This document shows, piece after piece, positions 1 to 64,000 of a DNA stretch of 64,000 nucleotides (its first letter is position 1; every line of letters starts with the position of its first letter). This DNA comes from a bacterium (GTDB lineage: Bacteria; UBA9089; CG2-30-40-21; SBAY01), in the NCBI GenBank assembly GCA_040757115.1, contig JBFLYA010000001.1, positions 6,526 through 70,525 of the forward strand, written 5' to 3'. The notes below the pieces were generated by a model, which saw nothing but the letters and a program-made list of their open reading frames with translations, was not told the DNA's origin and made no database searches. A program made the position numbers and the translations under genes.

Positions 1-3000
1 GTAAAGGTAGTAATGAATTTACCATTTGGTTCTGTCGTTACTTTAGTAATAGTCCTGGTAGTCCCAAAGTCAATCTGGATAAGTTCAGTCGCATAAAATC
101 CTGTGCCAATAATACTAACAATAGTCCCTACTGTCCCCCTATCTGGACTTACCACAGCAATTTCCTGGAAGATAAAGATATATCTTGTATCCTGTTTGCC
201 TGAATCAAGTCCCATAGGTGTAACCGAAGTTGTCCCATAAACCTGGGTATCAATGGTAAATGTAGTATAGAATCTTCCCTGTGCATCTGTTGAAATTGTA
301 GTAATAGTTAATGTCCTACCAAAATCAATTTGAATAAGTTCTGGTTGTGCAGGATTACTTTCTGGATTATATCCTTTCCCTTCTATAGTAATGATTGTTC
401 CCACTGTTCCTTCAGTTGGAGCAAGTAGAGAGATACCAGGTCTGATAAGGAAAGAGGTATAGGCACATTCTTCTGAAGGAATACCTCTAACAGTTACGGT
501 AATCCTACCCGATTGTTCATCAACGGTGAAATTAGCAATAAATTCACCAATGCCATTGGAGGTAGAAGTAGTAATAGTAAGTGTCGTACCAAACTGGACA
601 AATATATCCTCAGTCGCACCATAACCATTACCCCTTAGAGTAACAACAGTTCCCACTGGACCACTATCATACCAGATACTGGTTACATTACCTCTAACTG
701 CAAAGAAGTTTGCGGCGGAAGTATTCTTATCTCTCGCCACAACCGTCTTTGTAGCGGCAATCTGAGTATCGATAGTAAATGTGGTTCTAAATTGACCATT
801 CCAATCAGATGAGGTAATAGTAATGGTAGAATGTGTACCAAAATCTATACCAATTAACTCACTGACACCATACCCCGTGCCTTCTATAGTAACTATACTA
901 CCAACCGACCCTTGTGAAGGTGAAACAACCGTTACCCGACCTGTAATCGTAAATGACCCTAATGCGACTAAAGTGGTCTCAGAACCTGTAGCCTTAATTG
1001 TTGTTCGACCATAAGGCTGAGTATCTACGGTAAATGTAGTTGAGAATGTTCCCAAACTATTAGTCAAACCAATTCCTACAGTTCTACTGGTTCCAAAATC
1101 AATATAAATCGTCTCCGTCCTGCCAAATCCATCGCCTACAACGGTAACAATAGTTCCCAATGAACCCGAAGTAGGTGTAACCTTAATAATATTTCCATAA
1201 ATGAACAATGTCTTTTCATTCACCAGCCCCATTCTTAATCCAGTTGCCCGAACAGTAGTGCTTCCGGCAGGTTGTGTATCAATGGTAAATGTCGTGGTAA
1301 AAGTCCCTCTGATATTTGTTGTCACCGTAGTTATGGTTAGGAATGTTCCAAAATCAATCTGGATAAGCTCACTGGCATCAAAACCATTACCTCTCACGAT
1401 AATCTTTGTTCCCACAGAACCTCTATCTGGTGAAACTAAACTAATCTCGCCAACAATGAAGAAATTCTCCACAAAAATGTATCCTGCATTCCCTGTAGTA
1501 TTTCCACGATCAGTAATAGTCTTGGTTCCTGCAGGTTGTGTATTAACCGTAAATGTAACCGCATAGGTTCCAAAATTACTACAGTTAGTTTTGACAATAT
1601 AATTGCTATAAGGTGACTGATATGCATGATCAAAAATACCAAAGAAAAGTTTTACCTCTTCATTCTCCTTCCAGTGACCATTTCCAACCACCGTAACGAT
1701 GCAGCCAACAGAACCACGATTAGGTGTTACTAAAACAATTCTTGGGGTAACAAAGAACAGTCCTTGTTTAACACTTGCCTGCCCGGTGAAGATACCTGTA
1801 GCGACAATAGTGTTGAGATAATAAAGTTGCGTATCCACGCTAAATGTAGTCTCAAATTCACCACGATAATTAGAAGAAGTAAGAGCAATCGTCACCGTTG
1901 TCCCAAAACTTATTCTCACAAGTTCTGACTTTCCATATCCATTTCCTTTTACGGTAACAACTGTCCATGCAGGACCTTTTGTCGGTGTAATAAAGGTAAT
2001 TTCTGGAATAATCACAAATGGGTCCTCGGCAATTTGACCCGAACCTTCACCAGTAGCAATGATACTTGTCGTGCCATAAATCTGGGTATCAATACTAAAC
2101 ACCACCGTAAACGAACCAATCGTATCCGTAGTAGTTATTGTCATTGTCTTAGTTGTGCCAAAATCGATAAATATTCGCTCCTGCACACCATAGCCATTAC
2201 CTGCAACAGTAACAAACGACCCTACTGTTCCAGAAGGCGGTGAAATCAGAGTAATATTTCCTGTAATAACCATGAAATTCAAAGTCTCTTGAAGTGATGC
2301 ACCAGCACCTTTGGCAAAAATCGTTGTTGTGCCAAAAGGTTGAGTGGTAACGGTAAATGTGGTGGAGAAAGTCCCACCCAGCTGAGTTGGGGTAGCAGTA
2401 GTCGTCCCCACAAAATATTGCGTGGAAGTTCCTTTACCAAAATAAACACCTACATTCTCATTAGCACTATAACCATCACCCCAAATAATAACAATTGTTC
2501 CTACACTACCACTCGTAGGTGAGACTTGGTAAATTCGACCAACTATTCTGAAGTAATTGAACTTCTGTTGAGAAAAACTCGAAGCACATATAGTTGTAAA
2601 ACCATAAATTTGGGTGTTGACTGTAAATGCAGTTGAAAATGTCCCTGTAGGTGTAGTCCATGTTTTCACAATTGCTGATATCTCTCCAAAATGAATCATT
2701 ACTTCTTCTGATGCTTTATACCCATCACCTTTGACCGTGACAATTGTTCCAATTGTTCCTGATTCTGGACTAACTAAAATGATATTACCTACGAGAGTAA
2801 AATCAGGACTAAGTGTTATCGTTCCTGAAGAAATATACCCAAATATACTTATTGTCTTTGCACCATACACCTGGGTATCAACCGTAAAGGTCACCCGGAA
2901 AGAACCATCATTTGAAGAAGTTGTCGTTGCAATTGGTAATGTAGTTCCAAATTTAACTTCAATCGTCTCTGAACCACTAAATCCACAACCTTCTATAGTT

Positions 3001-6000: not shown

Positions 6001-9000
6001 GCACAGACACCTGATGGTGTGCCCTTAGCTGTAATAGTATTCGTGCCGTTCGACTGTGGTTGAATCTCAAATGATGTATTAAATTCACCATCAAAATTAG
6101 AAGTAGTTGTTGCCATTGGTATAAGATTCTGTGGCCAATAAACCTCAACTAATTCTGATGACCCATAACCATTACCTTGAACACTAACTATTGTCCCTAC
6201 AGGTCCTTGAACAGGTGAAACAATGGTTATCTTTGGACCAATAGTGAAATAATTAACGGCTTCCTGTTTTGGAGCATTCACCTCATAAGCCAATACCGTT
6301 GCTGTTCCAGCAGGTTGTGTATCAATAGTAAATGTTACTGTAATAGTCCCATTACCTGAAGACGTAGTATTAGCCTTATCCATAACCGTATTATGCGGGT
6401 CTATCTCTGTCCCAAATTGAATCTTGACCGGTTGATTATTTCTATAGCCACTACCATATACTGTTACTACTAATCCAACTGTACCAGAAGATGGTGAAAT
6501 CCTATAGATATTAGCAATAATCTTAAATGATGCTGTGGCTACCTCTAAAGAAAGCGTCCCTGTCGCCATAACTAATTTAGGAGAATGCGAACTATCCACA
6601 GGCTGTGTATCTACGGTAAAGATAGTATCAAATGACCCATTATGAATTGTCGAAACAGTCGTAATCGTTCGTGTCCATCCAAAACCTATGACTACTAACT
6701 CTGATGCACTGTAACCATTTCCTTTAATGGTTACAACAGTAGTTACTGGACCAGTAGTCGGTGTAATTAAATAAATATTAGATTTAATAGTCAGTGTGCC
6801 ATAAGGATTACTGCCTGAATCTATTCCCGTTGCCCGCACTGTTGTTATTCCAACGGGTTGGGTATCGATAGTAAATGTCGTGTTAAAGTAACCTGCCGCA
6901 TCGGTACTGGTAACATTTATACTCTTTGTCGTCCCAAAATCTATCCGTATACACTCACTACCTCTAAATCCATCCCCTTGCACGATAATTATAGTTCCCA
7001 CAGTGCCGGTCTTTGGCGAAATTACCTTTACGGTTGCCTGAACGGTAAAGGTTCCACTTGCCTCTTTACTGGTATTTATTCCAACTGCTTTAATCGTAGT
7101 TATCCCTACTGATTGGAGATCAACCGTGAAAACTGCAGTGAACGAACCATAGGCAGTAGTTGTAATAAAGGTAATCGTAGGTGTTGTGCCAAAGTGAATA
7201 TGTATTGGCTCTGTTGCACCAAATCCATTCCCTCTTACCATGACAGGTATTCCTATTGTCCCATCTTTAGGCTGAATCAGGATAATATTAGGCAAGATAG
7301 TGATCGTGCCTACTGCCTCTTCACTTCCCTTTGCCTTGACGGTAGTTACGCCATAAGGTTGGGTATTAATGGTAAAGGTAGTTGTCCAGCTTCCTTCTGC
7401 CACGCTGGATGCCAATCGAATATTAGAGTTAGTCCCAAAATCTATATGAATTGTCTTGGATGCCCCATAACCATTTCCACTTAGAGTTATGATTGTCCCT
7501 ACTGTTCCTTCTTTTGGAGTAATGGAAATGATATTGGATGAAATACTAATTGTGCCTTTATCTGAAATCCCATCTCCAGAAGCAACAATCGTTGTTATAC
7601 CATAAGGCTGGGTATCTATGGTAAAGGTAGTGGTAAATGAACCCTCGGCATAAGCAGATACAAATTGAATACTCCTTGTCGTCCCAAAGTCTATTTGAAC
7701 CGTTTCAGATGCTCTATATCCATTACCTCGTAAAGTAATAATTGTCCCTATCGTTCCTTCGGTTGGCGAGATAAAGATAATCTTTGGTTCAATTCTAAAT
7801 TTAACCTCGTAGGTAATCGTTCCTCCACACGCCCTAACTGTGGTCCAGCCATAAGGTTGGGTATTAATCGTAAAGGTAGTTGTAAAACTGCCACCTGCAC
7901 TGGTAGAAACAGTGGTTATAGTTTGTGTCGTCCCAAAATTAACATAAACCGTATCATTCCCACAATAACCATCTCCAGATACGGTAACTATTATTCCTAC
8001 TGTGCCGGAGGTTGGAGTAATATACACTAAGTTCTGTTTAATAAATGTATTATCAATGGCAAATATACCCAGGGCATCATTATAGGCTATAATAGTCGTC
8101 CGTCCATAAGGTTGGGTATTAATGGTGAATGTGGTTGAGAAACTGCCGTAGGCATCTGTTGAGGTAAAGGTAATACTTGGTGTCGTGCCAAATTTTATAC
8201 GAATAGTTTGACTGGCTCCAAATCCATTACCGGTTATGGTTACGATTAACCCTACCGTTCCTTCTGTTGGTGTAACTCCTGTAATAGCAGGTTCTATTCT
8301 GAAAGTAATATAAGCCGGATAATTCGAGTTCAATCCTGTTGCTTTAATCGTTGTCGTCCCATATTTCTGGGTATCGATAGTAAAGGTAACCGTAATTGAC
8401 CCTGATTCTACGGCAGTAACTGTATTAATGGTCAGGGTAGTTCCAAAATCTATCTGCACTAATTCATTACTCAGATAACCATTTCCATAGAGAGTAACTA
8501 TCGTGCCTACAGTTCCCGCGGTGGGAGTAATCTGGACTAACTTCGGTGCTATCTTAAACAGTAACGAATATGCCGATGTGCCGGTATTTATTCCCCAGAC
8601 GGTAATAGTAGTCGTCCCAATTCGTTGAACATCTACGGTGAAGGTAGTTGAGAACGACCCACATCCTTCTGAAGTAATCATAGTAATAGTCTGATTAGTT
8701 CCAAATTGAATTTGCACTGACTCATTACCACCAAATCCATTACCTGCTACCGTAACCACACTACCAACTGTTCCTTCTGTTGGTGTAACTAAAATAATAT
8801 TCGGTCCAATAAAATAGGTATTGCTTGCAGATACATCTCCCTCTTCCATATCAACGGCAACAACCGTTGTCGTTCCATAAGGTTGAGTATCAACTGTAAA
8901 TGTCGTTGAGAAACTACCTTGTGCATAAGTTGAGGTCATAGTAATAGTCTTATTTGTCCCAAAGAGAATATGAATGGTATGACTGGCGCCAAAACCATTA

Positions 9001-12000
9001 CCGGTTACCGTCACTGTAGAACCAACGGTGCCATTAGGTGGTATAACTGTAGTAACCTTTGGTTTTATGGTAAATGTCTCGATTGCAGAATTGAGTGGAC
9101 AGGTCGCCTTGATTGTAGTAACCCCACTTTGTTGGGTATTAACCGTAAAGGTAATTGTCCATGTCCCTGAAGCGTTAGCAGAAACCGTTGTAATTGACCT
9201 GGTAGTTCCAAAATCAATCCGCACGGTTGAAGCAGAACCAAAACCATCACCTTCTAATGTTACTATTGTCCCCACTGTGCCTTCTTTGGGTGTAGAGGTA
9301 TAGATTTTTGCCATTACATAGAAGATATTTGATGCTCGCTTTTCGTATTCAAGCATTTGTGCATATTTATATGAATTCCAGGCAGTAAATGTAGTTGTTC
9401 CTGCTGGCTGTTGAATATTAAAGTCATAGACCAAACTAAATGTCCCTGCCTGACTGGCATAAGTACCACCATAAGGAGGTGCTGGTGGTGTTACACTAGA
9501 ATCCGTACCATATATTGTCCCAAAATCAACATAAATCCCTTGACTTGCCGCATAGCCTGTGCCAAAGAGGGTAATTTGACTTCCCACCGTCCCTTTAGTC
9601 GGTGAAACCCAGACTAACTCTGGAATTATCTTGAATAAATCATCTACACCACCTGTATCATCATCTTCAAAACAAGAAGTTGTATCTGTGCCATAGATAG
9701 TCTTTGTTCCATAGGATTGGGTATCAACTGTCCATGTGCCATTAAATTCACCTCTATCCGTTGCCGTCGTAATCGCAATTGTTCGTGTCCAGCCAAATCC
9801 AATCAGCACCTCACCACCACCGGTATAACCATTACCCGAAACGGTAACTATAGTCCCTACCGTTCCCTTAATTGGAGTAATGCTAACAATATGTGGTACT
9901 ATTCGTAAGGTATCTGTAGCTTGTTCACGACCTGTAGGTTCTTTCGGACCGATAGCCATCGCTGTCGTTGTTCCAAAGACTTGAATGTCAATGGTAAATG
10001 TTTTCGTAAATGTCCCTGAGGCATTAGTCGTAGCAATAGTAATGGTGGAATTATTACCAAAGGCAATACGGATATTGCTATTTTCAGTATAACCTCTACC
10101 TTCAATCGTAATTGTTGTTCCTACGGTAGCAGACTTAGGTGTAAGTGTAGTAATTATCGGTAAGATAAAGAAGTAATTGCGTGCCCATTGTGCTGTGCTC
10201 AGACCAATAACCTTAATAGTTGTCGTGGCAAAAGGCTGAGGTATAGAAACTACACTCTGATCGAATTTTGCAGTAAATGTCCCTTCTGGAGAGACTCTCG
10301 GGTGAGTATCTGGCTCAATAATCACAAATCCCGTATTAGCAACTAAACCATACTCTGTCCCATAATCAATTGTTATATTTTCTCCATTTACACCATCTCT
10401 ACCAAAACCTGTTCCCTTAATAGTAATTATAGTTCCTATTGTCCCTGTAGTTGGACTAACCACAGTAATTTCTGGAATAAGAACAAAATATCTATACTGG
10501 TCAGGTCCTTTATTCCAGTATTCACCCCACTTATCTACTTCCTGAGTGTTAAGTCCTGTAGCCACAATCGTCTTGGTGCCAAAGTATTGGGTATTAACCG
10601 TAAAGATAGTAGCAAATGTCCCGGCATTGTTAGTTGAAACTGTGGTTATAGTTAAGGTTGTGCCTAAATCTATCTGCACTACCTCATTAGCACCATAACC
10701 ATCACCCTGAATAAGAATTGTATCTCCTACCTGTGCCTTCCATTTATCTGGCACATCAAAATGTGGCACTTCTACTTGCCGACTGATTAGTGTAATATGT
10801 GAATTTATCTTAAATAAGTCATCACTGCGATGATTATCCAGATCAAAGACATCAGCCGCCACAATTGTATGTGTCCCTGCCGGCTGTGTATTTACCGTAA
10901 AGGTAATACTGAATGTTCCACAGGCATTTGTCTTTGTTTCGGTAATAGTGGTAGTCTGACCAAATGTTACCCGCACGGTAGCCGTAGCCGCATAACCATC
11001 ACCAGCTATAGTTACAATTGTTCCTACAGACTGTGCCCTTGGTGTAACCAACCAGATATGCGAAATTATCTTAAAGGAATCTACATCCCTATATTCATCT
11101 TTATCAAAGTCATTGTATCCCATCCCTCCTGGTATCATACGAAATGCCTTAATAGTTGTCGTCCCATAAGATTGTGAATTAACATTAAATGTAATTGAAA
11201 ATGTCCCATTATAATTTGCAGTCTGTTGGATTATTGCCCAGCTAGTCCCAAACTCTATCGTTACTGTCCCCTGACGATGATAACCATTTCCATAAACTGT
11301 AATTGGCAATCCTACCGTCCCCACAGTAGCGGTAACATAAACAATATTATGCGTAATCTTGAAATAAGTATGATATTGTGTAGTAGTCCGTTCCCCGACT
11401 GCATTGACCGTATGTGTTCCATAGCATTGTTCATCAACCGTCCATTGTGTTATAAAACTACCATTGCCTGCTGCAGTTACCGTTGTAATACTCATATTTG
11501 TCCCAAATTCTATACGAATAAGTTCACTACCACCATAACCTGTTCCACTTACCTCTACTACAGTTCCCACTGTTCCGGTAAGAGGTGTAATACTAATTCC
11601 AGGGATAATTATAAAGTAATCATAATCCTTTGTAATCTGACCTGTGGCTGTAATAGTAGTTGTTCCCACAGGTTGAGTATCAACCACAAATGTGGCACTA
11701 AATGTTCCATTAGGTCCGGCAGTAGACATAGTAATACTTATATGTGTTCCAAAATCAATCTGGACAATTTCACTTGCCAGATAACCACTTCCTATGATAG
11801 TAACTTGAGTCCCTACTTGCCCTGAAGGAGGAATTACACTTATAATTTCTGCCTTTATAAAGAAGTTATTAAATGCCTCTTGTTTAGACATACCTTCAAG
11901 TGTTCCTCTACTTCTTACCGTAGTAGTTCCTGCTGGTTGAGTATTAATAGTGAATATATAAGTAAACTGTCCAATACCATTACATGTAGTTATTATATTA

Positions 12001-15000
12001 AATTCAACTGTAGTTCCAAACTTAATTTTTAGCTCATCCCCTGCATCATAACCATCACCATAAATTGTTACCCGACTTCCTACTGTCCCTTGTGTTGGCG
12101 AAACGGTATGAATCCTGGCGATAATGGTGAAACTACCCATCAAAACTCGCCCTGATGTGAGTCCTGTTACCACAACACTCTTTGTCCCAAAAGTCTGCAC
12201 ATCAACCGTAAATGTCAATGAGAAACTACCGTATGCATCTGAAGTGGTAATAGTTATAGTCGAATTAACCCCAAACCTGACATGAATGGTCTCTGTTGCT
12301 TCAAATCCATCACCCGTAATAGTAACCACTGTCGTTACTGTCCCTATGGTTGGGGTAAATAGTGTAAATTGCGATAAAATATTAAATGTCCCGCTTGCCT
12401 GCTGACCTGTATTTATGCCTCTTGCAGTAATCGTTGTCCAGCCATATCGTTGAGGATTGATAGTAAATGTAGTGCTAAATGAACCTGAATCAGTCGTCCT
12501 GGTAACAATGATACTCACCGTCGTTCCAAAATCAACCTGTATCTCTTCACTCGCTCCAAACCCACTACCGGCTACTGTAACGATTGACCCAACAGTATTG
12601 GCTTGTGGCTCAACCTTGAATATCTCTGGCTTGATAACTATCAACCGATAATCTTGCACCAAATCAACCTCATTTATATCTGTGGCAATAATGGTTGTCG
12701 TGCCGTAAGGTTGCGTATTGATTGTGAAGGTAATTGTCCATGAACCCTGCGGTTTAGAGATAACCGTTGTAATCGTCTTTGTCGTTCCAAAGTCAATCTG
12801 AATAGTATGAGTTGCACCAAATCCATTACCGCTTACCATAATAATCGTTCCTACTGTGCCTTCTATTGGACTGTAATAAATAATTTGTGGCAAAATAGTA
12901 ATGGTAGCAATTGCCTCCTCACTTCCTCTTGCCTTGATAGTCGTAATTCCATATCTCTGTGTATCGATAGTAAATGTAGTTGTAAAGCTGCCTTCGGCAT
13001 AAGTTGAGGTAACTTGAATACTTGGCGTTGTCCCAAAGTCAAGATGAACTATCTTGTATGCCCCATAACCATTGCCTTTAACCGTGATAATTGCACCGAC
13101 AGTCCCTGATGTTGGTGTAAGAGAGATAACATTTGACTCGATACTTAAAGTCCCTTCTGCCTTTATTACTTTACTATCGCTATGAGCAACAACAGTAGTA
13201 ATTCCGTAGTGTTGGGTATCAATGGTAAAGGTAGTAGTGAAGCTACCTTCGGCATAAGTTGAGGTAGTTTGAATAGTTAGTGTTTTTCCAAACTCTATCC
13301 GAATGATGGTTGAGGCATCGTAACCATTACCTCTAATAGTAATTATCGTCCCTACAGTTCCAGAGGTAGGTGAAATAAGAATGATATTCGGTAGAACAGT
13401 TACACTGCCATAGCGATGTAATCCCTGGTCATCTCCATGAGCACCTACTGTCGTTGTGCCATAAGGCTGCGTATCAATAGTAAATGTTGTGGAGAAACTT
13501 CCTTGTGCATAGGTTGAGGTAAGTTGAATAGTCGGTGTAGTTCCAAATTCTATCCTTATTGTCCTTGAGTTGCCATAGCCATTACCACAAATAGTAATGA
13601 TTGTTCCAACCGTGCCTTGCGTTGGTGACAGGTAGATGATATTGGGTAATATAGTAAGAGTCTTTTCTGCATTAATACCATCGCCATGTCCCTTTACTGT
13701 AGTTGTCCCATAGGGTTGAGTATCAATAGTAAATGTGGTAGTGAAGCTACCTTCGTCATAAGTTGAAGTAAGTTTAATAGTTGGTGTTCTCCCAAACTCT
13801 ATACGAATCCTTCTATAAGCCTCAAAACCATCACCCCTCACTATAACTACCGTTCCAACTGTCCCTGTATTTGCGGTAACATAAACGATATTTGGCAGGA
13901 TAAAGAATGTCAGGTTATCGGCATCGGCACCGGTAGTCATACCTGTTGCTTTAATCGTTGTCACACCATAAGGTTGTGTATTGATGGTAAAGGTAGTAGT
14001 GAAGCTACCTTCTAACTCTGCTGTCACAGTGGTAATCGTCATTGTCGTGCCAAAATCTACCTGGATTAACTCACCTGCTTTATATCCACCACCGCGTAAT
14101 GTAACTACTACACCGACAGTTCCTTGAGTTGCAGTTACTGACACTAATTGCGGCTTAATCACATACTCAAACTTCCAACTGCTCTTGCCAGTCATAACCC
14201 CAATTGCCTCAATAGTCGTCGTGCCTATCGGTTGAGTATCAACCGTAAAAGTAGTGGTGAAGCTACCGCAGTATTCTGCAGAAACTAAGGTAATTGTCTC
14301 TGTCGTTCCAAACTTAATTCTTACTAACTCACTTGAACCATAACCATTACCTCTAACTGTAACTACACTTCCTACTATGCCTTCTTTTGGCGTAATTAGT
14401 ATAATCTCTGGAATAATTCTGAGTCTATCATCATCTGAGGCAATATCTCCTGCAATAGCCTGGACATCCACTGCCACAATGGTCGTCGTGCCATAAGGCT
14501 GTGTATCAATGGTGAAGGTGGTTGAGAAACTACCGTGTGCATAAGTAGAAGTCATAGTAATCGTTTGATTAGTTCCAAAGAGAATATGAATGGTATGACT
14601 GGCGCCAAAACCATTACCTGTAACCGTAACTATTGTCCCTACTGTAGCTACCGCAGGAGTAACTGAAGTAATAACAGGTTTAATTCTAAATGATTCCGTA
14701 GCAAAGTTAAGTGGACAGGTAGCAGTAATTAAGGTATTACCACTCTGTTGCGTATTAACCGTAAAGGTAATGGTAAATGTTCCTGAGGCATTAGCAGAAA
14801 CCGTAGTAATAGACCTGGTAGTTCCAAAATCAATCCGCACGGTTGTAGCAGACCCAAAACCATCACCTTCTAATGTTACTATCGTCCCCACTGTGCCTTG
14901 TTTCGGTGTAGATGTATAGATTTTTGCCATCACATAGAAGATATTCGATGCCTTCTTATCATCACCTTGTGGTATCGCGTGAGTATATGAATTCCAGGCA

Positions 15001-18000
15001 GTAAATGTGGTAGTGCCTGCCGGTTGCTGAATTCTGAAATCATACACACTACTAAATGTTCCCGCCTCACTGGCTGTTCCATAAGCAGGCAGGAGATGAT
15101 CTACCTCCCAGTCTTCATCCTTATCTGTTCCAAAATCAACATAAATTCCTTGACTTGCCGCATAGCCTGTGCCAAATAATGTAATTTGTGTTCCTACAGT
15201 TCCCTTAGTCGGTGATACCCAGACTAACTCAGGAATTATCTTGAACAGGTCATCTACTCCACCCAGGTCATTATCTTCTACACCAGAAACAGTATCAGTA
15301 GCATAAATAGTCTTTGTCCCATAGAATTGAGTATCAACTGTCCATGTCCCATTAAATTCACCCGTTGGATTTGCCGTTGTAGTTGTAATCGTCCGTGTCC
15401 AGCCAAATCCAATCAGCACCTCGCCACCACCGGTATAACCATTACCATAAAGTGCAACTCTCGTTCCCACCGTCCCTTTAGTCGGTGTAATACTAACAAT
15501 ATGTGGCACTATTCGTAAGGTATTTGTAGCTTGTTCACGACCTGTAGGTTCTTTCGGACCAATACCCGTCGCTGTCGTTGTTCCAAAGACCTGAACATCA
15601 ATGGTAAATGTCTTTGTCCATGTGCCTGAAGAATCTGTGCTCGCCATAGCAATCGTTTGATTATTACCAAAGGCAATGCGAATGATAGCATTTTCTGAGT
15701 AACCTTTACCTTCGATCGTAATTGTTGTTCCTACAGTGGCGGATTTCGGTGTAAGTGTTGTAATCTTCGGCAGTATAAAGAAATAATTTTGTGCAAACTG
15801 TTTGGTACTGCTACCATAAACGACAATAGTCGTTGTCCCAAATGGTTGGGGAATATCTACTATGTTTTGTAAAAATGCTACAGTAAATGTTCCTTCTGAT
15901 GAAACTCGAACTGGTTCATAAGGAGGTTCGATACCCTCTACTCCATATTCAATATGAATCAATGTCCCATAATTAATCTCTAAATATTCACCATTTCCTA
16001 ATTCATCTCGATGACCATAACCTGTTCCACACACAGTAATAATTCTTCCTACGGTTCCGGTAGTTGGAGTAACTACAGTAATTTCCGGGATAATGACAAA
16101 GTATCTGTATTGGTCAATACATTTTTGCCAATATTCACCCCATTTATCGACTTCCGAAGTTGTAACTCCGGTAGCAACAATTGTTTTTGTTCCAAAGTAT
16201 TGCGTATTTACCGTAAATGTGGTGCTAAATGTCCCTGCATAATTAGTGGTTACCGTTGTTATTGTCAATGTTGTTCCTAAATCTATTTGAACCATTTCTG
16301 TCGCACCATAACCATCTCCAGTAATGAGAATAACATCTCCAACTTGTGCCTTCCATTTATCTGTTACCACAAAATGTGGTATCTCTGAAGTCCTACTAAC
16401 TAAGGTGATATGTGAGGTTATTCTGAATTCATCGTTATCACAATGATTATCCAGATCAACTAAATCAGCCGCAGTTATGGTATGACTACCTGCTGGTTGT
16501 TCATTCACGGTAAAGGTAACACTAAATGTCCCGCAGACATTTGTTGAGACTTGAGTGATAGTAGTTGTCCAGCCAAAATTTATCCGAACTAAAGCCAAAC
16601 TCGCATAACCATCACCAGCAACTGTAACAATTGTCCCCACTGACTGTGTCTTTGGTGTTACCATCCAGATATGTGAAATTATCTTAAAGCAATCAATATC
16701 ACTATAATCTGGTGTATCCCATAAATCTTGTAATCCTGCTGGTCGGTCACGCTGAGCAATAATTGTCGTTGACCCATAAGGTTGGTCATTAACCGTAAAG
16801 GAAATGCTAAATGTCCCATTAATATTTGCCAACCGTTGTATCATTATTGGCACAGTGCCAAATTTTATCGTAACGGTGCCATTTCGATGATAGCCATTAC
16901 CATAAACCGTAATTGGTAATCCAACCGTGCCTACCGTAGCAGTTACATAAACGATATTATGTGTAATCCTAAATTCCTTATTGAATGAAGTGTTTGATGG
17001 TGCACCAACAGCAGTTACAGTATGTGTGCCATAACATTGTTCATCAACCGTCCATTGTGTGCTGAAATAACCTGATGCCTGTGAAGTTATAGTCGTAATT
17101 GTTCGATTTGTGCCAAATTCTATGCGGATAAGTTCACTGCTACCATATCCAGTTCCACTTATCTGGACTATTGTTCCTACTGTTCCAGTTTCTGGGGTAA
17201 TGATAATTCCAGGTGTAATGACAAAATATTGATATGCACCAGTAATCTGACCCGTTGCTTTCACCGTTGTCGTTCCCACCGGTTGAGTATCAACCGTAAA
17301 TGTAGTACTAAATGTCCCATTTGGTCCTGAGGTAACCGTAGTAATCGTCAGATGCGTGCCAAAATCAATCGTGATAAGTTCTGCTGCCTTATATCCAGTT
17401 CCTTGAACCGTGACGGGTGTTGACACGGGTCCAGAAGATGGCACAACTGATGTAACTTCGGCCATAATAAAGAAATAATTATATGCTAACTCTTTAGACT
17501 TATTTGTCCCTCTACTCCTAACAGTTGTTGTTCCTGCTGGTTGAGTATTAACTACAAATGAATGGAGAAATTGTCCGTTAGAATTAGATGATTGAACCTC
17601 TGTAGATTCTTCATCCGTTCCAAATTTAAGGACTATATCTTCTATGGCAGAATATCCATCTCCTCTTATTGTAACAACTGTCCCTACCGTCTGACGATAT
17701 GGAGTAACCTCATATATTCGCGCAATAATCTTAAATTTACCATAATCTACAACACCACTGGTTAATCCTTTTGCACTTATCGTCTTAGTTCCATAAACCT
17801 GGGTATCAACCGTAAATGTCATTGAGAAACTACCATAAGCATCTGTTGTTGTCATCGTAATAGTGCCAGTATTACCAAATCCAATACAAATCCCCTCGGT
17901 TGCACCATAACCATTTCCAGTTACCGTCACGATGCTATATATCTTTTCACCAGTAGTTGCCACAATAAGAGCTTCTACTACCCCAGATGTAGGTGTAATA

Positions 18001-57000: not shown

Positions 57001-60000
57001 AACGCTATCGTCTTATTTGTCCCAAAGATTATCCGAATTTGCTCATTAGCCATATAACCATTACCCTGCAAGATTACCAGTGTATCTACGGTCCCGGTAG
57101 TTGGCGTGAACGAAATTATCCGCTGACGAATATGGAAATAATAAATAGCCGATGTCCCTGTCCTTATTCCAAACCCGGTAATCGTTGTCGTGCCATAAGG
57201 TTGGGTAGTAACTGTAAATGTGGTCGTGAATGAACCAAATTTAGTCGAAGTTATTGTCGTCACGGTCTTTGAAGTCCCAAAGAGGATATGCACCATCTCC
57301 GACGCCCCATAACCATTACCAGAAACCGTCACCATACTCCCTACCGTGCCTATGGTTGGGGTAACAAAGACAATCCGTGGCTGGATGGTTAATGTCTGGG
57401 TAGCAAAGACTGTTTCCTCAGGGATATTAACATCCGTTGCCTTAATCGTAGTCGTTCCAAAAGGCTGGGTGTCAATGGTAAAGGTAGTGGTGAACGACCC
57501 TTCGGCATAGGTTGAGGTAGTCTGAATAGTAACAATTGTCCCAAAATCTATTCTTATTAAATGCGTCGCCCCAAATCCATTACCGCGTAAAGTGATTATA
57601 GTCCCTACCGTGCCATAATTCGGTGAGACAAGTATAATATTCGGCAGAATCTTTAATCTGTTACTGGCGTTGACGGTTTCATCCTGACTGTAGGCAATAA
57701 TCGTAGTTGTGCCAAACGGTTGTGTATCAATAGTAAATGTGGTTGTCCATGTCCCTTCAGCATAAGTTGATGTTGTCTGAATAGTCCGCGTAGTCCCAAA
57801 TTCAATCCGCACCGTTACCGATGCCTCATACCCTGTCCCACGAATAGTAATAATAGTGCCCACCGTTCCTTGCGTGGGAGTAACATAGAATAATTCTGGT
57901 AAAATTGTAATCGTGCCATACGCCTTTATCCCAATATCATCCTGATGAACAGTAATTGTCTTTAGACTATACGGCTGACTATCTATCGTAAATGTGGTTG
58001 TCCATGACCCTTCTGCATAAGTCGAAGTTGTCTGAATAGTGCTATTTGTCCCAAATTCTATCCTGACCGTATTTGAAGCACTATAGCCATTGCCACTGAT
58101 AGTAATTACTGTGCCTACTGTCCCTGAAGTTGGTGAGATATAGATAATATTTGGTAAGATAGTCGTGCTACCATAAGCCACTACTACCCCCACCGCAAAT
58201 TCTATATCTTCTGCCATAATCGTTGTCGTCCCATACGGCTGGGTATCTATGGTAAATGTGGTTGTCCATGAACCTTCAGCATAAGTCGAGGTTGTCTGAA
58301 TAGTCTGAGTCCTCCCAAAATCTATCCGAATCGTATGTGATGCCCCATAACCATTACCCCTAACCGTGATTATACTTCCTACCGTTGCCTGTTTAGGTGT
58401 AACTAAAATGATATTGGGCAGAATAGTAAATGTGCCATCTGATTTTATACCTATATTATCTTGATGTGCGGTGATAGTTGTAATCCCATATCTTTGTGTA
58501 TCAATGGTAAAGGTGGTAGTAAATGAGCCGTGGAGTGTGCTTGTCACCATCACGATAGTAGGTGTAGTGCCAAAGGCTATGCGTATCGATTTTGATGTGC
58601 TATAACCATTCCCACTGACTGTAACCTTTGTTCCCACCGTTCCTTCTTGAGGGAAAATCCAGATAATATTTGGCTGGATAGAGAAGGATAGGTCATCATC
58701 CGAAATCGTAGATTCTGTTCCGTAAGCAATGATAGTAGTCGTTCCATAAGGCTGAGTATCTACGGTAAATTTAACTGTAAACGACCCAAGCCCATTGACA
58801 TGAGTGGTAGTAATCGTCCGTGTCGTTCCAAAATGTATGGCTACTGTCTCCGATGTCTTATAACCATTTCCTTTAACCGTAACCCAACTTCCTACTGTGC
58901 CTGTAGTTGGTGTAACCGAAATAATCCGTGCTATAATCGTGAAATAATCCCAGTTTAAAACACCTGTTACACTTCCCACCGCCGTAATAGTTGTTGACCC
59001 ATACATCTGTGTATCGACGCTAAACCAGGTCGTAAATGAACCATAAGCCTCAGTAGTTGTTGTATTTATTGTCTTAGTTGTCCCAAAATGTATATAAATC
59101 TTCTCCGTCGCACCAAATCCATTACCTCTAACCGTAATCCTATCTCCCACTACACCAGTTAGAGGCGTAACCAAAATAATCCTGGGTAAAATACTCACTG
59201 TCCCTTCTGCCTGGATATGCGGGTCATATCCATGGGCAATTACCGTTGTCGTTCCATAAGGCTGGGTAGTAATGGTAAAGGTGGTGGTAAATGACCCTTC
59301 GTAGGCAGAGGTGACAAATTGGATACTGGAAGTCGTCCCAAATTCTATCATCACCGTATCTGATGCCTCATAACCATTACCAGAAATAGTAATTACTGCC
59401 CCGACGGTGCCTGATTTGGGTGTAATCTGAATAATATTTGGTAAGATGGTATAAGTTCCAACAGCCTCTTCACTACCATGTGCCTTAATCGTAGTAATCC
59501 CCCACGGCTGGGTATCAATGGTAAAGGTAGTAGTAAAACTACCGTATTCCTGGGTTGAGGTAAACTGAATACTTGTAGTTCTGCCAAAATCTATGGTTAC
59601 GGTTTTTGAGGCGCCAAATCCATTACCGCTGACCGTCACTATTGAACCTACTGTGCCTGATTTAGGAGTAATCAAGATAATATTGGATTCAATACTCAAT
59701 GACCCGTAACGATGTAAATCCTGGTCATCACCATGAGCACCAACCGTAGTTGTCCCATAAGGTTGCGTGTCTATTGTCCAGGTAGTGGTAAATGACCCCT
59801 CAGCATAAGTCGAAGTTATCTGAATAGTCCTATTTGTCCCAAATTCTATCCGTATCGTCCTTGAAGCAGCATAACCATTCCCGGCAATAGTAATTATTGA
59901 ACCTACTGTTGCTGATTTAGGTGTAATCAGGATAATATTGGGTAGAACGGTTATCGTCCCTTCACAATGCAGGTTCTGGTCATCACCATGGGCTTTGACA

Positions 60001-63000
60001 CTGGTGGTGCCATAAGGTTGGGTATCGATGGTAAATGTCGTAGTCCATGAACCCCGGGCATAGGTTGAGGTAAATTGAATAGTAGGTGTTGTCCCAAACT
60101 CTATCCGAATCGTCCGACTTGCCCCATAACCATTACCACGAATAGTGATGATTGTTCCAACTGTGCCTTGTGTAGGTGTAATCACGATAATATTTGGCAG
60201 AATAGTTACAGTGCCCGCAGAGTTAATTATCTCTGTCCCTGTTCCTTTTCCGTAGGCAGTAAAGGTAGTAATACCATATTGTTGGGTATCTATGGTAAAT
60301 GTAGTGGTGAAACTACCCTGTGCTACAGATGTAACCGTCTGAATTGTCCGACTGGTCCCAAAATCTATACGAATGCTATCCGTAGCAGAATAACCATTCC
60401 CGCTAATGGTAATCACCGTTCCTACCGAACCTTGAGTTGGAAAGATGTAAATAATATTAGGTGTGATAGTAAATGACCTGTCAAAAGCTGATTCACCAGG
60501 AATACCTCTATCTCTACCAGTGATAGTAGTCGAGCCATAAGGTTGTGTAGTGATAGTAAAGAAAGTGGTAAATGAACCATGATGATAGGTAGAGGTAATA
60601 ATTAGTGAAGGTGTAGTGCCAAAATCTATCTGAACCAGGTTGGTGGCACTATAGCCATTACCTCTAACCGTAACCAATGAACCAACACTCCCTGCCCTCG
60701 GTGTAACCAGAATAATATTTGGCTTAATGAAGAAGGTTTGAGTATATGACCCACCACTATCTATCCCGGTAGAGATAACCGTAGTTGAACCTGCTGGCTG
60801 GGTATCGATAGTAAAGGTAGTAGTAAATGAACCGGTGTAATCAGCCGTAGTTACTGCGATAGTAAATGTCCTGCCAAAACTCACCCGAATAGTCTCACTT
60901 GCCTTGTATCCCTGTCCATTGACTGTCACCTCTTTTCCTACCGTGCCAAAAGTAGGTGTAATGGTTAATCTGCTGGTAATAGTAAATGTAGCTGAAGCAT
61001 CTGGCCAGGTAAAATAGGTTCTAAGTTTATGGCCCATTGCCTTGATTGTAGTTATACCTACTGGCTGAATATTTACGGTAAACTGAGTAGTAAATGTCCC
61101 ATCCTCTGTTGTAGTTATTCCCGTAGTAATACTATGGGTCGTGCCAAAATCCAGCTTAATTGTTTCGGTTGCCCCATATCCCGCACCCTCTACCGTCACT
61201 ACCGTGCCTACAGAACCTGATAAGGGTGTAGTGACTAATAAACGAGGGATGATGATGAATGTGCTTGTGGCCCTAATATCAGATATTCCTATTGAATAAA
61301 CGACTACAGCAGTAGTTCCCGCCTGTTGTTGATCCACAGAAGGTATCGGTTGAATGTATGACTCACCATCTAAAGGTGCCTTGCCTCCATAGACTCCAAT
61401 CTTTTTCCCAAAATCATAACGAAGATCATCATTTCGGAAATAACCATCATAATAAATTGTAATGTTAGTTCCAACAGTTCCTATTGAAGGTGACACTTCT
61501 CTAATCCTCTGGATTATCTTAAAATCACTCTGGAGACTTCTACCACTTTGGACACCAGATACAGTAATCGTTGTGCTTCCGTAAGGTTGGGTATCTACAG
61601 TAAAGGTAGTAGCAAATGTCCCAAATCTATTAGAGGTGACTGTGGTAATCGTCCCCTTAATCCCAAATGCTACCTCTATCTTCTCTGATGCCCCATAGCC
61701 ATTTCCTTGCACGGTCACAATCGTGCTTACCGTCCCAGTAACCGGTGAAACTAAAGTAAGTTTCTCTGTAATCACAAAAGTCCAGGTGCCGTGTCCCTCC
61801 CCCGTTTCCCAGTCACCATACCACGGATAGGAATTGAGCCCAATACCAACAATAGTCGTTGTTCCATAAGGTTGTTCATTTACCGTCCAACTCACTGTAA
61901 ATGTCCCATCTGATGATGGAGTAGTGATTGTAATTGTTCCCGTAGTCCCAAATAATATATGCACCTGTTCATTACTCCCATAACCATTTGCCGTAATAGT
62001 AACCTTAGAACTAACGGTTCCCTCAGGAGGAGCGACATTAGTAATCTTTGGCATAATCACATATAAGAACTTCTCCGATTGACGACCAGAACCCTGACCT
62101 ATAACTACAATAGTTTTGGTCCCAAAACATTGTATATTAACATCAAAAGCAACTGTAAATGAGCCGGAAGAAGTAGCCGTAGCCCCAGTTGGATATAATT
62201 GTGCTCCAACAAATTCTGAAATACCAAATTTAACCTTTAGCGATTCTCCTCCTTGATATCCATCACCATATAATGTAACTCTACTTCCAACTGTTCCTGA
62301 GGAAGGCGTAACCTCAAAGATGCGAGGTAAGACATAAAATGTTGCCGTAGAAAAGACACCAGAAACTAAATCTATTGCCCATATAGTTGTCGTTCCTGGC
62401 TGGGTATCTACAGTAAAGGTAATCGTAATTGAACCAGAAGAAAGGGCGGTTACCGTGGTAATCGTCTCTGTTGTCCCAAACTTTATCTGCACAAGCGAAC
62501 TACCACTATAACCATTCCCATAAACGGTTACAATCGTCCCTACTGTGCCTTGGGTAGGGGTAATAGAAACGATATTAGGCAAGATAAAGAAAGAAGATGT
62601 AGCCGGATAATCAGAAATAAGCCCTCGGGCAATAATCGTGGTTGAACCATCGGATTGGGTATCTACCGTAAAGGTAATAGTAAATGTGCCACCATGATAT
62701 GTTTCTGGATTTCTTGAGCTAGATGTTACTAAAGTAATAGTAATAACAGCACCGAATTGAATCCTTATCATTTCCCCTATCCAAAAACCGTTACCACGGA
62801 TAGATACAATACTACCAACTGTCCCTTGCATAGGTGTAGTTGAAATAATCTTAGGTAATACAAAAAATCCCCTTGTATTTCTAGCAACCACAGGACTAAC
62901 ATCTCTCATAATAATAGTTTTTGTCCCATATGGCCGCTCATCTATCGTAATAACTGTAGTAAAAGAACCATTTGAAGGTGAAGGATTTATTTGTATCATA

Positions 63001-64000
63001 TACTCATTTTCATCGATTTCAATAACTACCTCCTCATTAGGATACCCTGTGCCACTGATAGTTATATTTGTTCCTACCGTTCCTCTTGTCGGCGTAAATA
63101 AGGTTATTTGCGATTTTATCATAAATGTATTAGGCGAGGTTCGAGTTGCAACCGCACCTGTATCAGACCCATAGGCCACAATATCCGTATATCCATACTT
63201 TTGCGTATCCACTGTAAATGTAGTTGTCCATGAACCGTAGTATCCAGGGCTTGTAGGGTCAGTAGAAACTAAAGTAATCGTCGCATTAGTCCCGAATTTA
63301 ATCCTGACTAATTCATTTTGACCATAACCATTACCCCTTACCGTAACAACACTCCCCACCACTCCTTCTGTTGGCGTAACTAAAATAATATTTGCCGTTA
63401 TACAAAAAGTGCCTTCCTCAGATAGATAAGGAGAACTATGCAACGCTTTAATAGTCTTTATTCCATAAAATTGGGTATTTACTGTAAAAGTAATTGTAAA
63501 TGAACCATAGTCAGTACTTGAACCTGTGGTAATCCCTTGCATTCCTCCCTGAGCTGGGTCACCAAAGTCAATTCTCACCGTATCACTTGCCCGATACCCA
63601 TCACCTCTTACCGTAACAATAGTCCCCACTGAACCTGAGGTAGGAGTAACAAATACAACCCTCTGTCTTATACTAAATGTCCCCCTGGCAGAAATATTAT
63701 AATTTTTATCCGTATATGGGTATCCCTGGCTCTTCCATACCGCAGTTATAGAGGTTATCCCGTAAGGTTGTGTATCAACTTCAAATACTAATCTTATTAA
63801 ACCCTTATTATAGTCTGATGACATACTCCTGATATGCCATTCCCACTCGTCATCAGCCCATGATGGAGATGATGCTCCTGCTGCCCCTTGCACTGTTCCA
63901 AAATCTATCGCTATATACCCCGTAGATGGATAGCCTGTTCCTTCTACCGTTACTGAAGTCCCTACCGTCCCCGTAGTAGGTGAAACAAGAATAATATTAG
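1..64000 (-). CDS. Internal segment of one giant ORF, partial at both ends, encoding at least ~21,300 aa of tandem Ig-like (IPT/TIG-like) ~83-aa domains; probably a giant extracellular fibrillar or adhesin-type protein
   Basis: The reverse-complement frame (plus-strand codons starting at positions divisible by 3) was checked by hand at positions 243, 1560, 7608, 8367, 9420, 11040, 15027, 20226, 33909, 43350, 47433, 49824, 52179, 55599, 60018 and 63201 and is always the same. Translations made by hand at four locations are all coherent repeat-domain sequence. At 7591-7870: INTQPYGWTTVRACGGTITYEVKFRIEPKIIFISPTEGTIGTIITLRGNGYRASETVQIDFGTTRSIQFVSAYAEGSFTTTFTIDTQPYGITT. At 59995-60250: AGTVTILPNIIVITPTQGTVGTIITIRGNGYGASRTIRIEFGTTPTIQFTSTYARGSWTTTFTIDTQPYGTTSV. 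At 1560-1760: KIVLVTPNRGSVGCIVTVVGNGHWKENEEVKLFFGIFDHAYQSPYSNYIVKTNCSNFGTYA. At 20470-20650: ILPAIWKVELSEGTVGSVVTITANGYPKEGLVWIGFGTTPTIQTVSANVNGTFSVSFTINTQ. The ORF track has no long minus-strand ORF, and all 14 short minus-strand ORFs share one off-frame (codon start position leaves remainder 2 on division by 3). Unit lengths and indels between paralogous copies are multiples of 3. Amino-acid conservation exceeds nucleotide conservation between paralogous copies. Confidence 0.88.
7100..12650 (-). repeat. Copy A of a ~5.6-kb tandem segmental duplication (higher-order module of ~22 Ig-like units)
   Basis: Aligned by eye to 12700-18280 at a constant offset of ~5605-5620 nt. Matching points are 7290/12895, 8881/14498, 9301/14921 and 11821/17431. 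The core 8.9-11.8k versus 14.5-17.4k is roughly 80-90% identical at nucleotide level; the flanks are more diverged. Confidence 0.8.
12700..18280 (-). repeat. Copy B of the ~5.6-kb tandem segmental duplication
   Basis: See copy A. Relative to copy A near 12320, copy B carries an in-frame insertion of about 11-12 codons near 17930-17990. Confidence 0.8.
12950..14300 (-). repeat. Homogenised array of near-identical ~250-nt (83-aa) Ig-like units
   Basis: Units start at about 12958, 13211, 13465, 13717, 13975 and 14235. They share long identical strings such as ggttgggtatcaatggtaaaggtagtagtgaagctaccttcggcataagttgagg. Confidence 0.75.
20403..27652 (-). repeat. Higher-order module (~7.25 kb, ~29 Ig-like units) bounded by a recurring marker domain
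   Basis: A marker domain starting tttggcagtatcttgtaggt at 20403 recurs at 27653. The internal order of diverged units is collinear with the next module, for example 21970-23100 with 29220-30350, 20650-21300 with 27900-28560, and 20221-20400 with 27481-27650. Confidence 0.7.
25430..27250 (-). repeat. Homogenised array of near-identical ~250-nt Ig-like units
   Basis: Units start at about 25447, 25687, 25935, 26200, 26445, 26697 and 26957. All carry ...ccataaggttg(g/c)gtatc.at.gtaaaggt.gt.gt.aa... followed by gcataagttgagg. Confidence 0.75.
27653..34862 (-). repeat. Higher-order module (~7.2 kb) paralogous to 20403-27652
   Basis: The same marker domain recurs at 27653 and 34863, with a collinear series of unit types between. 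The LRGGGY-type unit at 27065 matches the one at 34275. Confidence 0.7.
32650..34100 (-). repeat. Homogenised array of near-identical ~250-nt Ig-like units
   Basis: Units start at about 32665, 32915, 33165, 33415, 33660 and 33905, with the same core motif as the 25.4-27.25k array. Confidence 0.75.
34863..40397 (-). repeat. Higher-order module (~5.5 kb)
   Basis: Marker domain at 34863 and 40398. The stretch 36181-36700 aligns to 41690-42230 at an offset of ~5510, roughly 80% identical by eye. Confidence 0.7.
40398..45811 (-). repeat. Higher-order module (~5.4 kb) paralogous to 34863-40397
   Basis: Marker domain at 40398 and 45812. The stretch 39200-40700 aligns to 44700-46100 at roughly 85% identity, with a 27-nt in-frame length difference at 39480-39540. 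Confidence 0.7.
57190..60560 (-). repeat. Longest homogenised array (~13-14 near-identical ~255-nt Ig-like units)
   Basis: Units start at about 57200, 57465, 57715, 57975, 58235, 58490, 58755, 59255, 59505, 59765, 60020 and 60285. Each encodes a close variant of the sequence hand-translated at 59995-60250 (...PNIIxITPxxGTVGTIITIRGNGYxASxTIRIEFGTTPTIQFTSTYAxGSWTTTFTIDTQPYGTT...). Confidence 0.8.

Follow-up and report, generated by a model that had tools for sequence, protein, structure and literature searches.

Fibrillar adhesins with immunoglobulin (Ig)-like stalks carry a long tandem array of stalk domains together with an export signal and a C-terminal anchor, and the TIG (IPT/TIG) domain is a recognised stalk domain of these proteins (Monzon and Bateman class; PMC9210967). 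In the best-studied giant adhesins, stiffness is provided by calcium and RTX motifs; four repeats of region RII of the RTX adhesin MpIBP measure 190 angstroms (~45 angstroms each), and 120 repeats reach ~0.6 micrometre (PMC4083281). Giant genes for proteins of more than 10,000 amino acids (aa) have been described in the candidate phylum Omnitrophota (West-Roberts et al., 2023; 2026 complete-genome preprint), where the largest copy number quoted for a single Pfam domain is 41 (2026 complete-genome preprint). Here we analyse the 64,000 nucleotides between positions 6,526 and 70,525 of contig JBFLYA010000001.1 (forward strand; GenBank assembly GCA_040757115.1; GTDB lineage Bacteria; UBA9089; CG2-30-40-21; SBAY01), hereafter the window, which belong to one giant gene and encode 244 tandem Ig-like units of putative TIG type. 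The product of this gene is, with reasonable probability, the shaft of a giant surface fibre.

Six-frame translation of the window revealed a single minus-strand frame with no stop in 21,332 codons, open at both window ends; the remaining five frames contain 831-2764 stops, and their longest open stretch is 208 codons. The window thus lies inside a single giant gene, which extends past both edges. The first-pass annotation of this DNA had described the array without giving a strand; the array proves to be one gene, read from the minus strand. The DNA has a GC content of ~40%, and the encoded piece amounts to 2.26 MDa with an isoelectric point of 5.3; its composition (T 18.5%, G 11.5%, I 10.7%, V 8.3%, C 0.34%) is as rich in the first four residues and as poor in cysteine as had been noted, and histidine makes up 0.86%. 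No open reading frame (ORF) of at least 200 aa is contained entirely inside the window, two plus-strand ORFs of at least 150 aa were set aside as chance ORFs antisense to the giant gene, and scans of both strands for RNA genes returned no Rfam match and no tRNA (ARAGORN). In a positional ortholog from a metagenome contig (locus L001, described below), the ORF runs at least 4,160 aa past the C-terminal edge of the window, to the end of its contig, with further units throughout the rest of the locus. Judged from this ortholog, the complete product probably has more than 25,000 aa and more than 290 units.

A hidden Markov model (HMM) of the repeat unit, built from 132 regularly spaced units of the window, resolved the protein into 244 in-register tandem units (U1 to U244) that cover 21,030 of 21,332 residues (98.6%), the last unit being truncated by the window edge. 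Each unit scores at least 27.9 bits, whereas shuffled or reversed controls do not exceed 1.9 bits, and outside the units the frame holds no head, enzyme or low-complexity spacer in 21,332 aa. Unit length has a mode of 85, a median of 86 and a mean of 87.6 aa (range 72-111 aa); the earlier estimate of ~83 aa was slightly low and that of ~250 copies close. The unit consensus, xPxIxxxTPxxGTVGTxVTVxGNGYxxxExIxIxFGTTxTIxxxxxxxxGSFTxTFTVDTQPYGTTTIxAxG, can be read as three successive parts (xPxIxxxTPxxGTVGTxVTVxGNGY, xAxExIxIxFGTT and GSFTTTFTVDTQPYGTTTI), and the three motifs picked out in the first reading of the DNA are all present in it. Inserts of at least 6 aa occur mostly in the loops after unit positions 39 and 43. 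The acidic inserts that had been placed in some linkers do exist, in a few units only (WADDEWEW in U1, DKDEDWEVD in U187 and FEDDDTGGVDD in U207), but most of the longer inserts are not in linkers.

Prediction of the canonical unit U15 with AlphaFold2 (AF2), using a 150-unit alignment, gave a seven-strand sandwich with a mean predicted local distance difference test score (pLDDT) of 94.4 and a predicted template modelling score (pTM) of 0.83, in line with the beta-sandwich that had been proposed; a Foldseek search of the Protein Data Bank (PDB) with this single-unit model returned weak, generic Ig-like matches only. When 150 units were scanned singly against Pfam, PF01833 (TIG) was the commonest match (53 of 150 units at E<=1, best E 3e-7), followed by Big_6 with 15 units. 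U15 reaches 23.4 bits and the stretch 15618-15923 reaches 21.3 bits against PF01833, both above the gathering cut-off of 20.9 bits. Neither long chunks of the protein (1,666 aa and 1,001 aa) nor the unit consensus gave a TIG match in Pfam, and an NCBIfam scan produced nothing meaningful. The failure of the TIG model on the 1,666-aa chunk and the consensus, when it matches single units, is presumably caused by composition-bias correction on a Thr-rich repeat. The Pfam match alone is thus borderline, and what ties the unit to TIG is firstly that, among solved structures, the unit profile finds its best sequence matches (E 0.003) in the TIG-type domain D of cyclodextrin glucanotransferases, and secondly that the window-derived unit HMM detects 27 periodic domains (E 9e-42) in P0094, a canonical TIG array (Pfam TIG E 1e-248, 27 stretches). 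A phmmer search with the first 2,000 aa of the window protein also matched P0094 (E 1.8e-17).

With TIG arrays such as P0094 the window unit shares the motif of the N-terminal half (P-x-I-x-x-[IV]-[ST]-P-x-x-G-x-x-G-T-x-[VI]-T-[VI]-x-G-x-G-[FY]), a period of ~85 aa and the seven-strand sandwich. It differs from the family in its own C-terminal signature, GSFTTTFTVDTQPYGTTTI, with a glutamine conserved at 97%, and Pfam recognises only about one third of the units, and these only at E<=1. Because chunks and consensus give no Pfam TIG match, we conclude that the unit belongs to a divergent IPT/TIG subfamily, in which the N-terminal half is typical of TIG and the C-terminal half is subfamily-specific. 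The assignment to IPT/TIG as the best class, made in the first-pass annotation, is thereby supported, but the lack of conserved cysteines, which had been taken as a distinguishing mark, is not one, as the units of P0094 that were displayed are also without cysteine. Automatic annotation of such genes will tend towards "hypothetical protein", the label of most database relatives.

The units are old and individual. Any two of the 244 units are on average 42% identical, with few pairs above 70%; compared as DNA, the copies agree at ~60-70%, and exact direct repeats in the 64 kb reach 44 nucleotides at most. Given this low DNA identity and short exact repeat, recent repeat amplification or repeat-driven misassembly was ruled out as unlikely. 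Two segmental duplications could be traced within the array. One has a lag of 21 units and relates U179-195 to U200-216, with unit-by-unit identities of 61-92% in aa and ~76% in DNA over ~3 kb, and the same lag relates U69-72 to U90-93; the other has a lag of 28 units and relates U111-119 to U139-147 (63-72% aa identity). Both are old.

Comparison with L001 extends this picture between organisms. Residues 18202-21332 of the window protein are collinear with L001 at 66-67% identity (tblastn), against ~40% elsewhere in the array, and at 67-68% identity over 3,076 globally aligned codons; 30 of 35 units are nearer to their L001 ortholog than to any paralog in the window. Codon alignment of window and ortholog gave a ratio of non-synonymous to synonymous substitution rates (dN/dS) of ~0.23, with dS ~1.1, near saturation. 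In the 27 columns most variable among paralogs, dN/dS is 0.42, compared with 0.15 elsewhere, and identity to the ortholog is 50%, compared with 13% for random paralogs. From the collinear ortholog and these ratios, the units had acquired their order and identity before the two organisms diverged, and purifying selection acts on these, as judged by codon alignment, which upholds the earlier suggestion that the array is not merely redundant and that the order of its units is conserved.

L001 carries an in-frame TGA (2014-2016) where the window has GGA (residue 18869, 7392-7394), the codon of the invariant glycine G50; it is a single case, for which sequencing error, a pseudogene mutation and UGA read as glycine are candidates. 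L001 also contains frameshifts at ~6830 and 10629-10711, probably short-read assembly errors, which together with the TGA divide the giant gene into four gene calls.

This stop and these two frameshifts, along with the fragmentary state of nearly all public relatives, are what one could cite for the view that the frame is no functional protein, being either an artefact of repeat assembly or a decaying pseudogene. Such an origin is very improbable in view of the absence of any stop from 21,332 codons, the 44-nucleotide limit on exact repeats among units ~60-70% identical in DNA, and the dN/dS of 0.23. Other loci from metagenome-assembled genomes (MAGs) are, moreover, filled over up to 17 kb (L008, L011) by one open frame of the same unit, and a 23.5-kb contig (JACQYP010000058.1) is filled by two such genes, called as 5,854 and 1,987 aa; the 16-kb part of that contig that was read is one open frame with 63 units.

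The junctions between units were examined in an AF2 model of four consecutive units, U15-U18 (pLDDT 91.0, pTM 0.72), in which the chain passes from the final strand of each unit to the opening strand of its successor within only ~2 residues. When conservation was mapped onto the strands, the best-conserved positions proved to lie in loops at the poles of the domain and not in its core, the entropy being 1.45 bits in the A-B, C-C' and E-F loops compared with 2.27 bits in the strands. The C-terminal pole has the conserved positions P9, G12, V14, G15, F35-G36 and D59-T60-Q61-P62-Y63-G64, and the N-terminal pole has G22-N23-G24-Y/F25 and G50, of which G24, Y/F25 and G50 are invariant. The two poles meet at each junction, and therefore both sides of the junction are conserved. 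We infer that the unit junctions are stereotyped, and they are probably stiff.

Within the C-terminal pole, the glutamine at unit position 61 (motif DTQPYG; window 60018-60020 in U15) is conserved at 97% across the 244 units, a level rarely seen in Ig-like domains. The residue lies in the E-F loop at the junction pole, where candidate roles are a loop cap, a junction contact or a cross-link. A Thr-Gln ester-bond domain, considered on account of the conserved DTQ, was set aside as unsupported: PF18202 matched only 1 of 150 units (E 0.008), and histidine, scarce at 0.86% of residues, is not a leading residue at any well-conserved unit position.

The best database relatives of the window protein are at the level of paralogs (35-44% identity) and are nearly all "partial" proteins, each occupying a short contig from a MAG of Candidatus Desantisbacteria or from one labelled only as unclassified "bacterium"; the GC content of the window is compatible with several of these MAG names. 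Two longer contigs stand out. JAHIZN010000456.1 (55,768 bases) holds loci L008 and L013, with 66 and 56 units, and JASEHA010000001.1 (57,225 bases) holds loci L011 and L014, one of them with 67 units. The unit fills every locus that was fetched from these two contigs, whose middle parts lie outside those loci, and judged by this each contig may represent one similarly large gene. Among 1.84 billion representative proteins, a profile search returned 8,050 matches, the largest array having 72 matched stretches (7,284 aa), so that the window array, with 244 units, exceeds this maximum more than threefold in copy number.

Relatives whose ends are known offer clues to export and anchoring. P0008 begins with a signal-peptide-like N-terminus followed directly by units; P0006, a complete protein, has a signal peptide, a right-handed beta-helix, units and then, by Pfam, C-terminal CHU_C/Por_Secre_tail type IX sorting domains; and P0044 has the same layout, by its sequence and its precomputed Pfam list. 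A sorting domain (PF18962 or CHU_C) is also found in the precomputed Pfam lists of P0044, P0042 and P0048. Complete long TIG arrays of other lineages likewise combine a signal peptide with a C-terminal transmembrane anchor or type IX sorting domain, and other relatives pair the unit with propellers, FG-GAP, M23 peptidase, cohesin or dockerin domains. By analogy with these relatives, the window protein would most likely be a Sec-exported, C-terminally anchored fibre.

These layouts also bear on a different use of the array, as a scaffold of the cell envelope or matrix (a coat, a sheath, an S-layer-like or a biofilm-matrix element) running along, around or between cells, in which many distinct domains would give mechanical resilience. 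A head or other non-repeat domain is absent from all 21,332 aa of the window, the length is greater than a typical cell diameter, and the conservation of individual units fits position-specific contacts as well as it fits a shaft. Yet relatives with known ends are adhesin-like, with a distal enzyme or binding domain, a TIG stalk and a C-terminal anchor, and no lattice-forming or self-association feature was identified, which makes a scaffold of this kind rather unlikely. The association of the unit with cohesin, dockerin, beta-helix, propeller and M23 peptidase domains in proteins of the same or related uncultivated bacteria could instead point to a long tether or docking platform, serving cell interaction (episymbiosis or predation) or partner display in a role like that of the Omnitrophota giants; a link to attack on other cells has been drawn for giant genes of other uncultivated phyla (10.1101/2023.11.21.568195), and the unit-specific surface residues are under purifying selection, with the dN/dS of 0.42 given above. 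Within the window, however, there is no cohesin, dockerin or enzyme domain, and the giants of Omnitrophota are not TIG arrays but multi-enzyme proteins or proteins with different repeats. We consider this role distinctly unlikely.

The explanation that we favour, at reasonable though far from complete confidence, is that the product, encoded by an uncultivated Desantisbacteria-like bacterium, forms the micrometre-scale shaft, or extender, of a giant surface fibre or fibrillar adhesin. The window protein is made of 244 consecutive TIG-type units, that is, of tandemly repeated domains as in the stalks of fibrillar adhesins. An N-terminal signal peptide would direct the protein to export by the Sec pathway, and its C-terminus would hold it at the cell surface by means of a type IX secretion sorting domain or a membrane anchor. 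The beta-sandwich domains, with their ~2-residue linkers and stereotyped, conserved junctions, would make a thin fibre, and this fibre would serve as a shaft carrying the N-terminal part, or domains of its own, far from the cell. If each of these shorter domains contributes 3.5-4 nm, as we assume, 244 units could plausibly extend for up to ~0.85-1.0 micrometre, a value to be read as an upper bound.

Several observations weigh against a shaft of this kind. Firstly, the product is known here from its gene sequence alone, and the gene ends, with any signal peptide, anchor and head domain, lie outside the window; contig scans recovered neither end. With the N-terminal 500 aa as query there was no match in genome contigs or metagenome contigs, a 12-unit alignment found relatives without gene ends among them, the alignment of window and ortholog had no match in metagenome contigs, and a homolog search seeded with the downstream part of L001 returned the same paralog-level matches and nothing new. 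Secondly, compared with known multi-Ig rods in the PDB, the four-unit model reaches TM scores of only 0.2-0.32 (Foldseek), and the array may follow a zig-zag or superhelical path, hence forming a shorter fibre. Thirdly, the window protein has no GGxGxD and no DxDxDG, the motifs of calcium-dependent stiffening, and only one 8-aa stretch with at least five D/E. Calcium binding in acidic linkers, which had been put forward for testing, is therefore not supported, nor is the calcium-linker mechanism of MpIBP-type extenders; calcium or RTX stiffening was rejected for the array in the window, the C-terminal part of the protein lying beyond it. Fourthly, the in-frame stop and the two frameshifts of L001, if real, would argue for decay in that lineage.

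Set beside the described systems, the array is built like the stalk of a giant fibrillar adhesin or like the BIg extenders of RTX adhesins, differing in TIG subfamily, calcium motifs, unit divergence, copy number and probable export route. Compared with fibrillar adhesins, which share the long tandem array and, with the relatives of the window protein, the export signal and C-terminal anchor, the window protein is one to two orders of magnitude longer than typical members and is known here from its stalk alone. It differs from RTX giant adhesins (MpIBP RII, LapA/Lap, SiiE) in having neither the RTX nonapeptide nor an acidic Ca2+ linker motif; MpIBP repeats are near-identical, whereas the window units are 42% identical, and RTX adhesins are type I secreted, whereas the relatives of the window protein point to Sec export with type IX secretion or a membrane anchor. 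With the Omnitrophota giants it has in common a length above 10,000 aa, a candidate-phylum host and genes obscured by fragmentation in public assemblies, but it comes from a different phylum and is a pure array of a single domain. The giant-gene literature that we searched covers Omnitrophota and mentions neither Desantisbacteria nor TIG arrays.

Titin, a eukaryotic protein, consists of a few hundred diverged Ig-like and FN3 domains with short linkers and position-specific conservation; it is intracellular and carries a kinase and unique regions. Its lineage and domain family are unrelated to those of the window protein, and the resemblance is one of analogy only. On the boldest interpretation, which we would call a long shot, the array might be a calcium-independent, junction-stiffened filament with ~290 or more individually maintained positions, acting as an addressable, micrometre-scale scaffold or molecular ruler whose position-specific surfaces bind partners or order extracellular structure; it would then be an extracellular counterpart of titin and possibly the dominant surface structure of a candidate phylum.

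Further features of the window are collected in Table 1. The variant unit U208, which the first-pass annotation had singled out as unusual, gave no Pfam match when scanned alone. It and its paralog U187 have in common the altered motif IPELVWVSP...VYDF.IQQPAGTTTF and differ in their inserts, which are acidic (DKDEDWEVDHLLPAY) in U187 and proline-rich (PPAPPYGG) in U208. The closest relative found in public genomes is L005 (JBFLZA010001214.1, 1.5 kb), with 91% aa identity; it is binned as "Cyanobacteriota bacterium MAG099", an assignment that is probably wrong, and a further fragment of the family, P0017, bears the label Woesearchaeota archaeon. Binning errors seem to affect short repeat-only contigs of this gene family.

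Table 1. Coordinates of features in the window, numbered from its first letter.
Feature	Position	Strand	Basis
Stop-free frame, 21,332 codons, 244 tandem IPT/TIG-type Ig-like units	3..63998	-	six-frame translation + unit HMM
U1, 110 aa, with 17-aa insert containing WADDEWEW	63669..63998	-	alignment
Canonical unit U15, aa 1267-1351, 85 aa, used for single-domain structure prediction	59946..60200	-	
U15-U18, aa 1267-1603, used for four-unit model	59190..60200	-	
U111-U119, copy A of 28-unit-lag duplication	32850..35117	-	aa identity
U139-U147, copy B of 28-unit-lag duplication	25629..27908	-	aa identity
Residues 12451-12964, matched by L005 (JBFLZA010001214.1)	25107..26648	-	91% aa identity
U179-U195, older-looking copy A of 21-unit-lag duplication	12894..17465	-	aa + DNA identity
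U187, paralog of U208, with DKDEDWEVDHLLPAY at the same loop site	14931..15236	-	
U200-U216, copy B of 21-unit-lag duplication	7296..11855	-	aa + DNA identity
Variant unit U208, 104 aa, insert PPAPPYGG in loop after unit position 43	9315..9626	-	
Residues 18202-21332, collinear with positional ortholog L001 (JGI metagenome contig Ga0181613_1000757)	3..9395	-	tblastn + codon alignment

The domain type and the general architecture of this protein were already known, and what is new is scale, not principle. If expressed, the protein would be among the largest bacterial proteins outside Omnitrophota, with 2.26 MDa in the window and at least 4,160 further residues implied by the ortholog, and its copies of one domain are far above those of any protein found (72 stretches among the representative proteins, 41 in Omnitrophota). 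It offers a naturally occurring chain in which several hundred Ig-like domains have diverged and are each conserved, and may be of use in studying how long tandem arrays avoid recombination and misfolding and how a fibre can be stiffened without calcium. For Desantisbacteria, these data suggest that fragmented assemblies conceal very large surface-protein genes.

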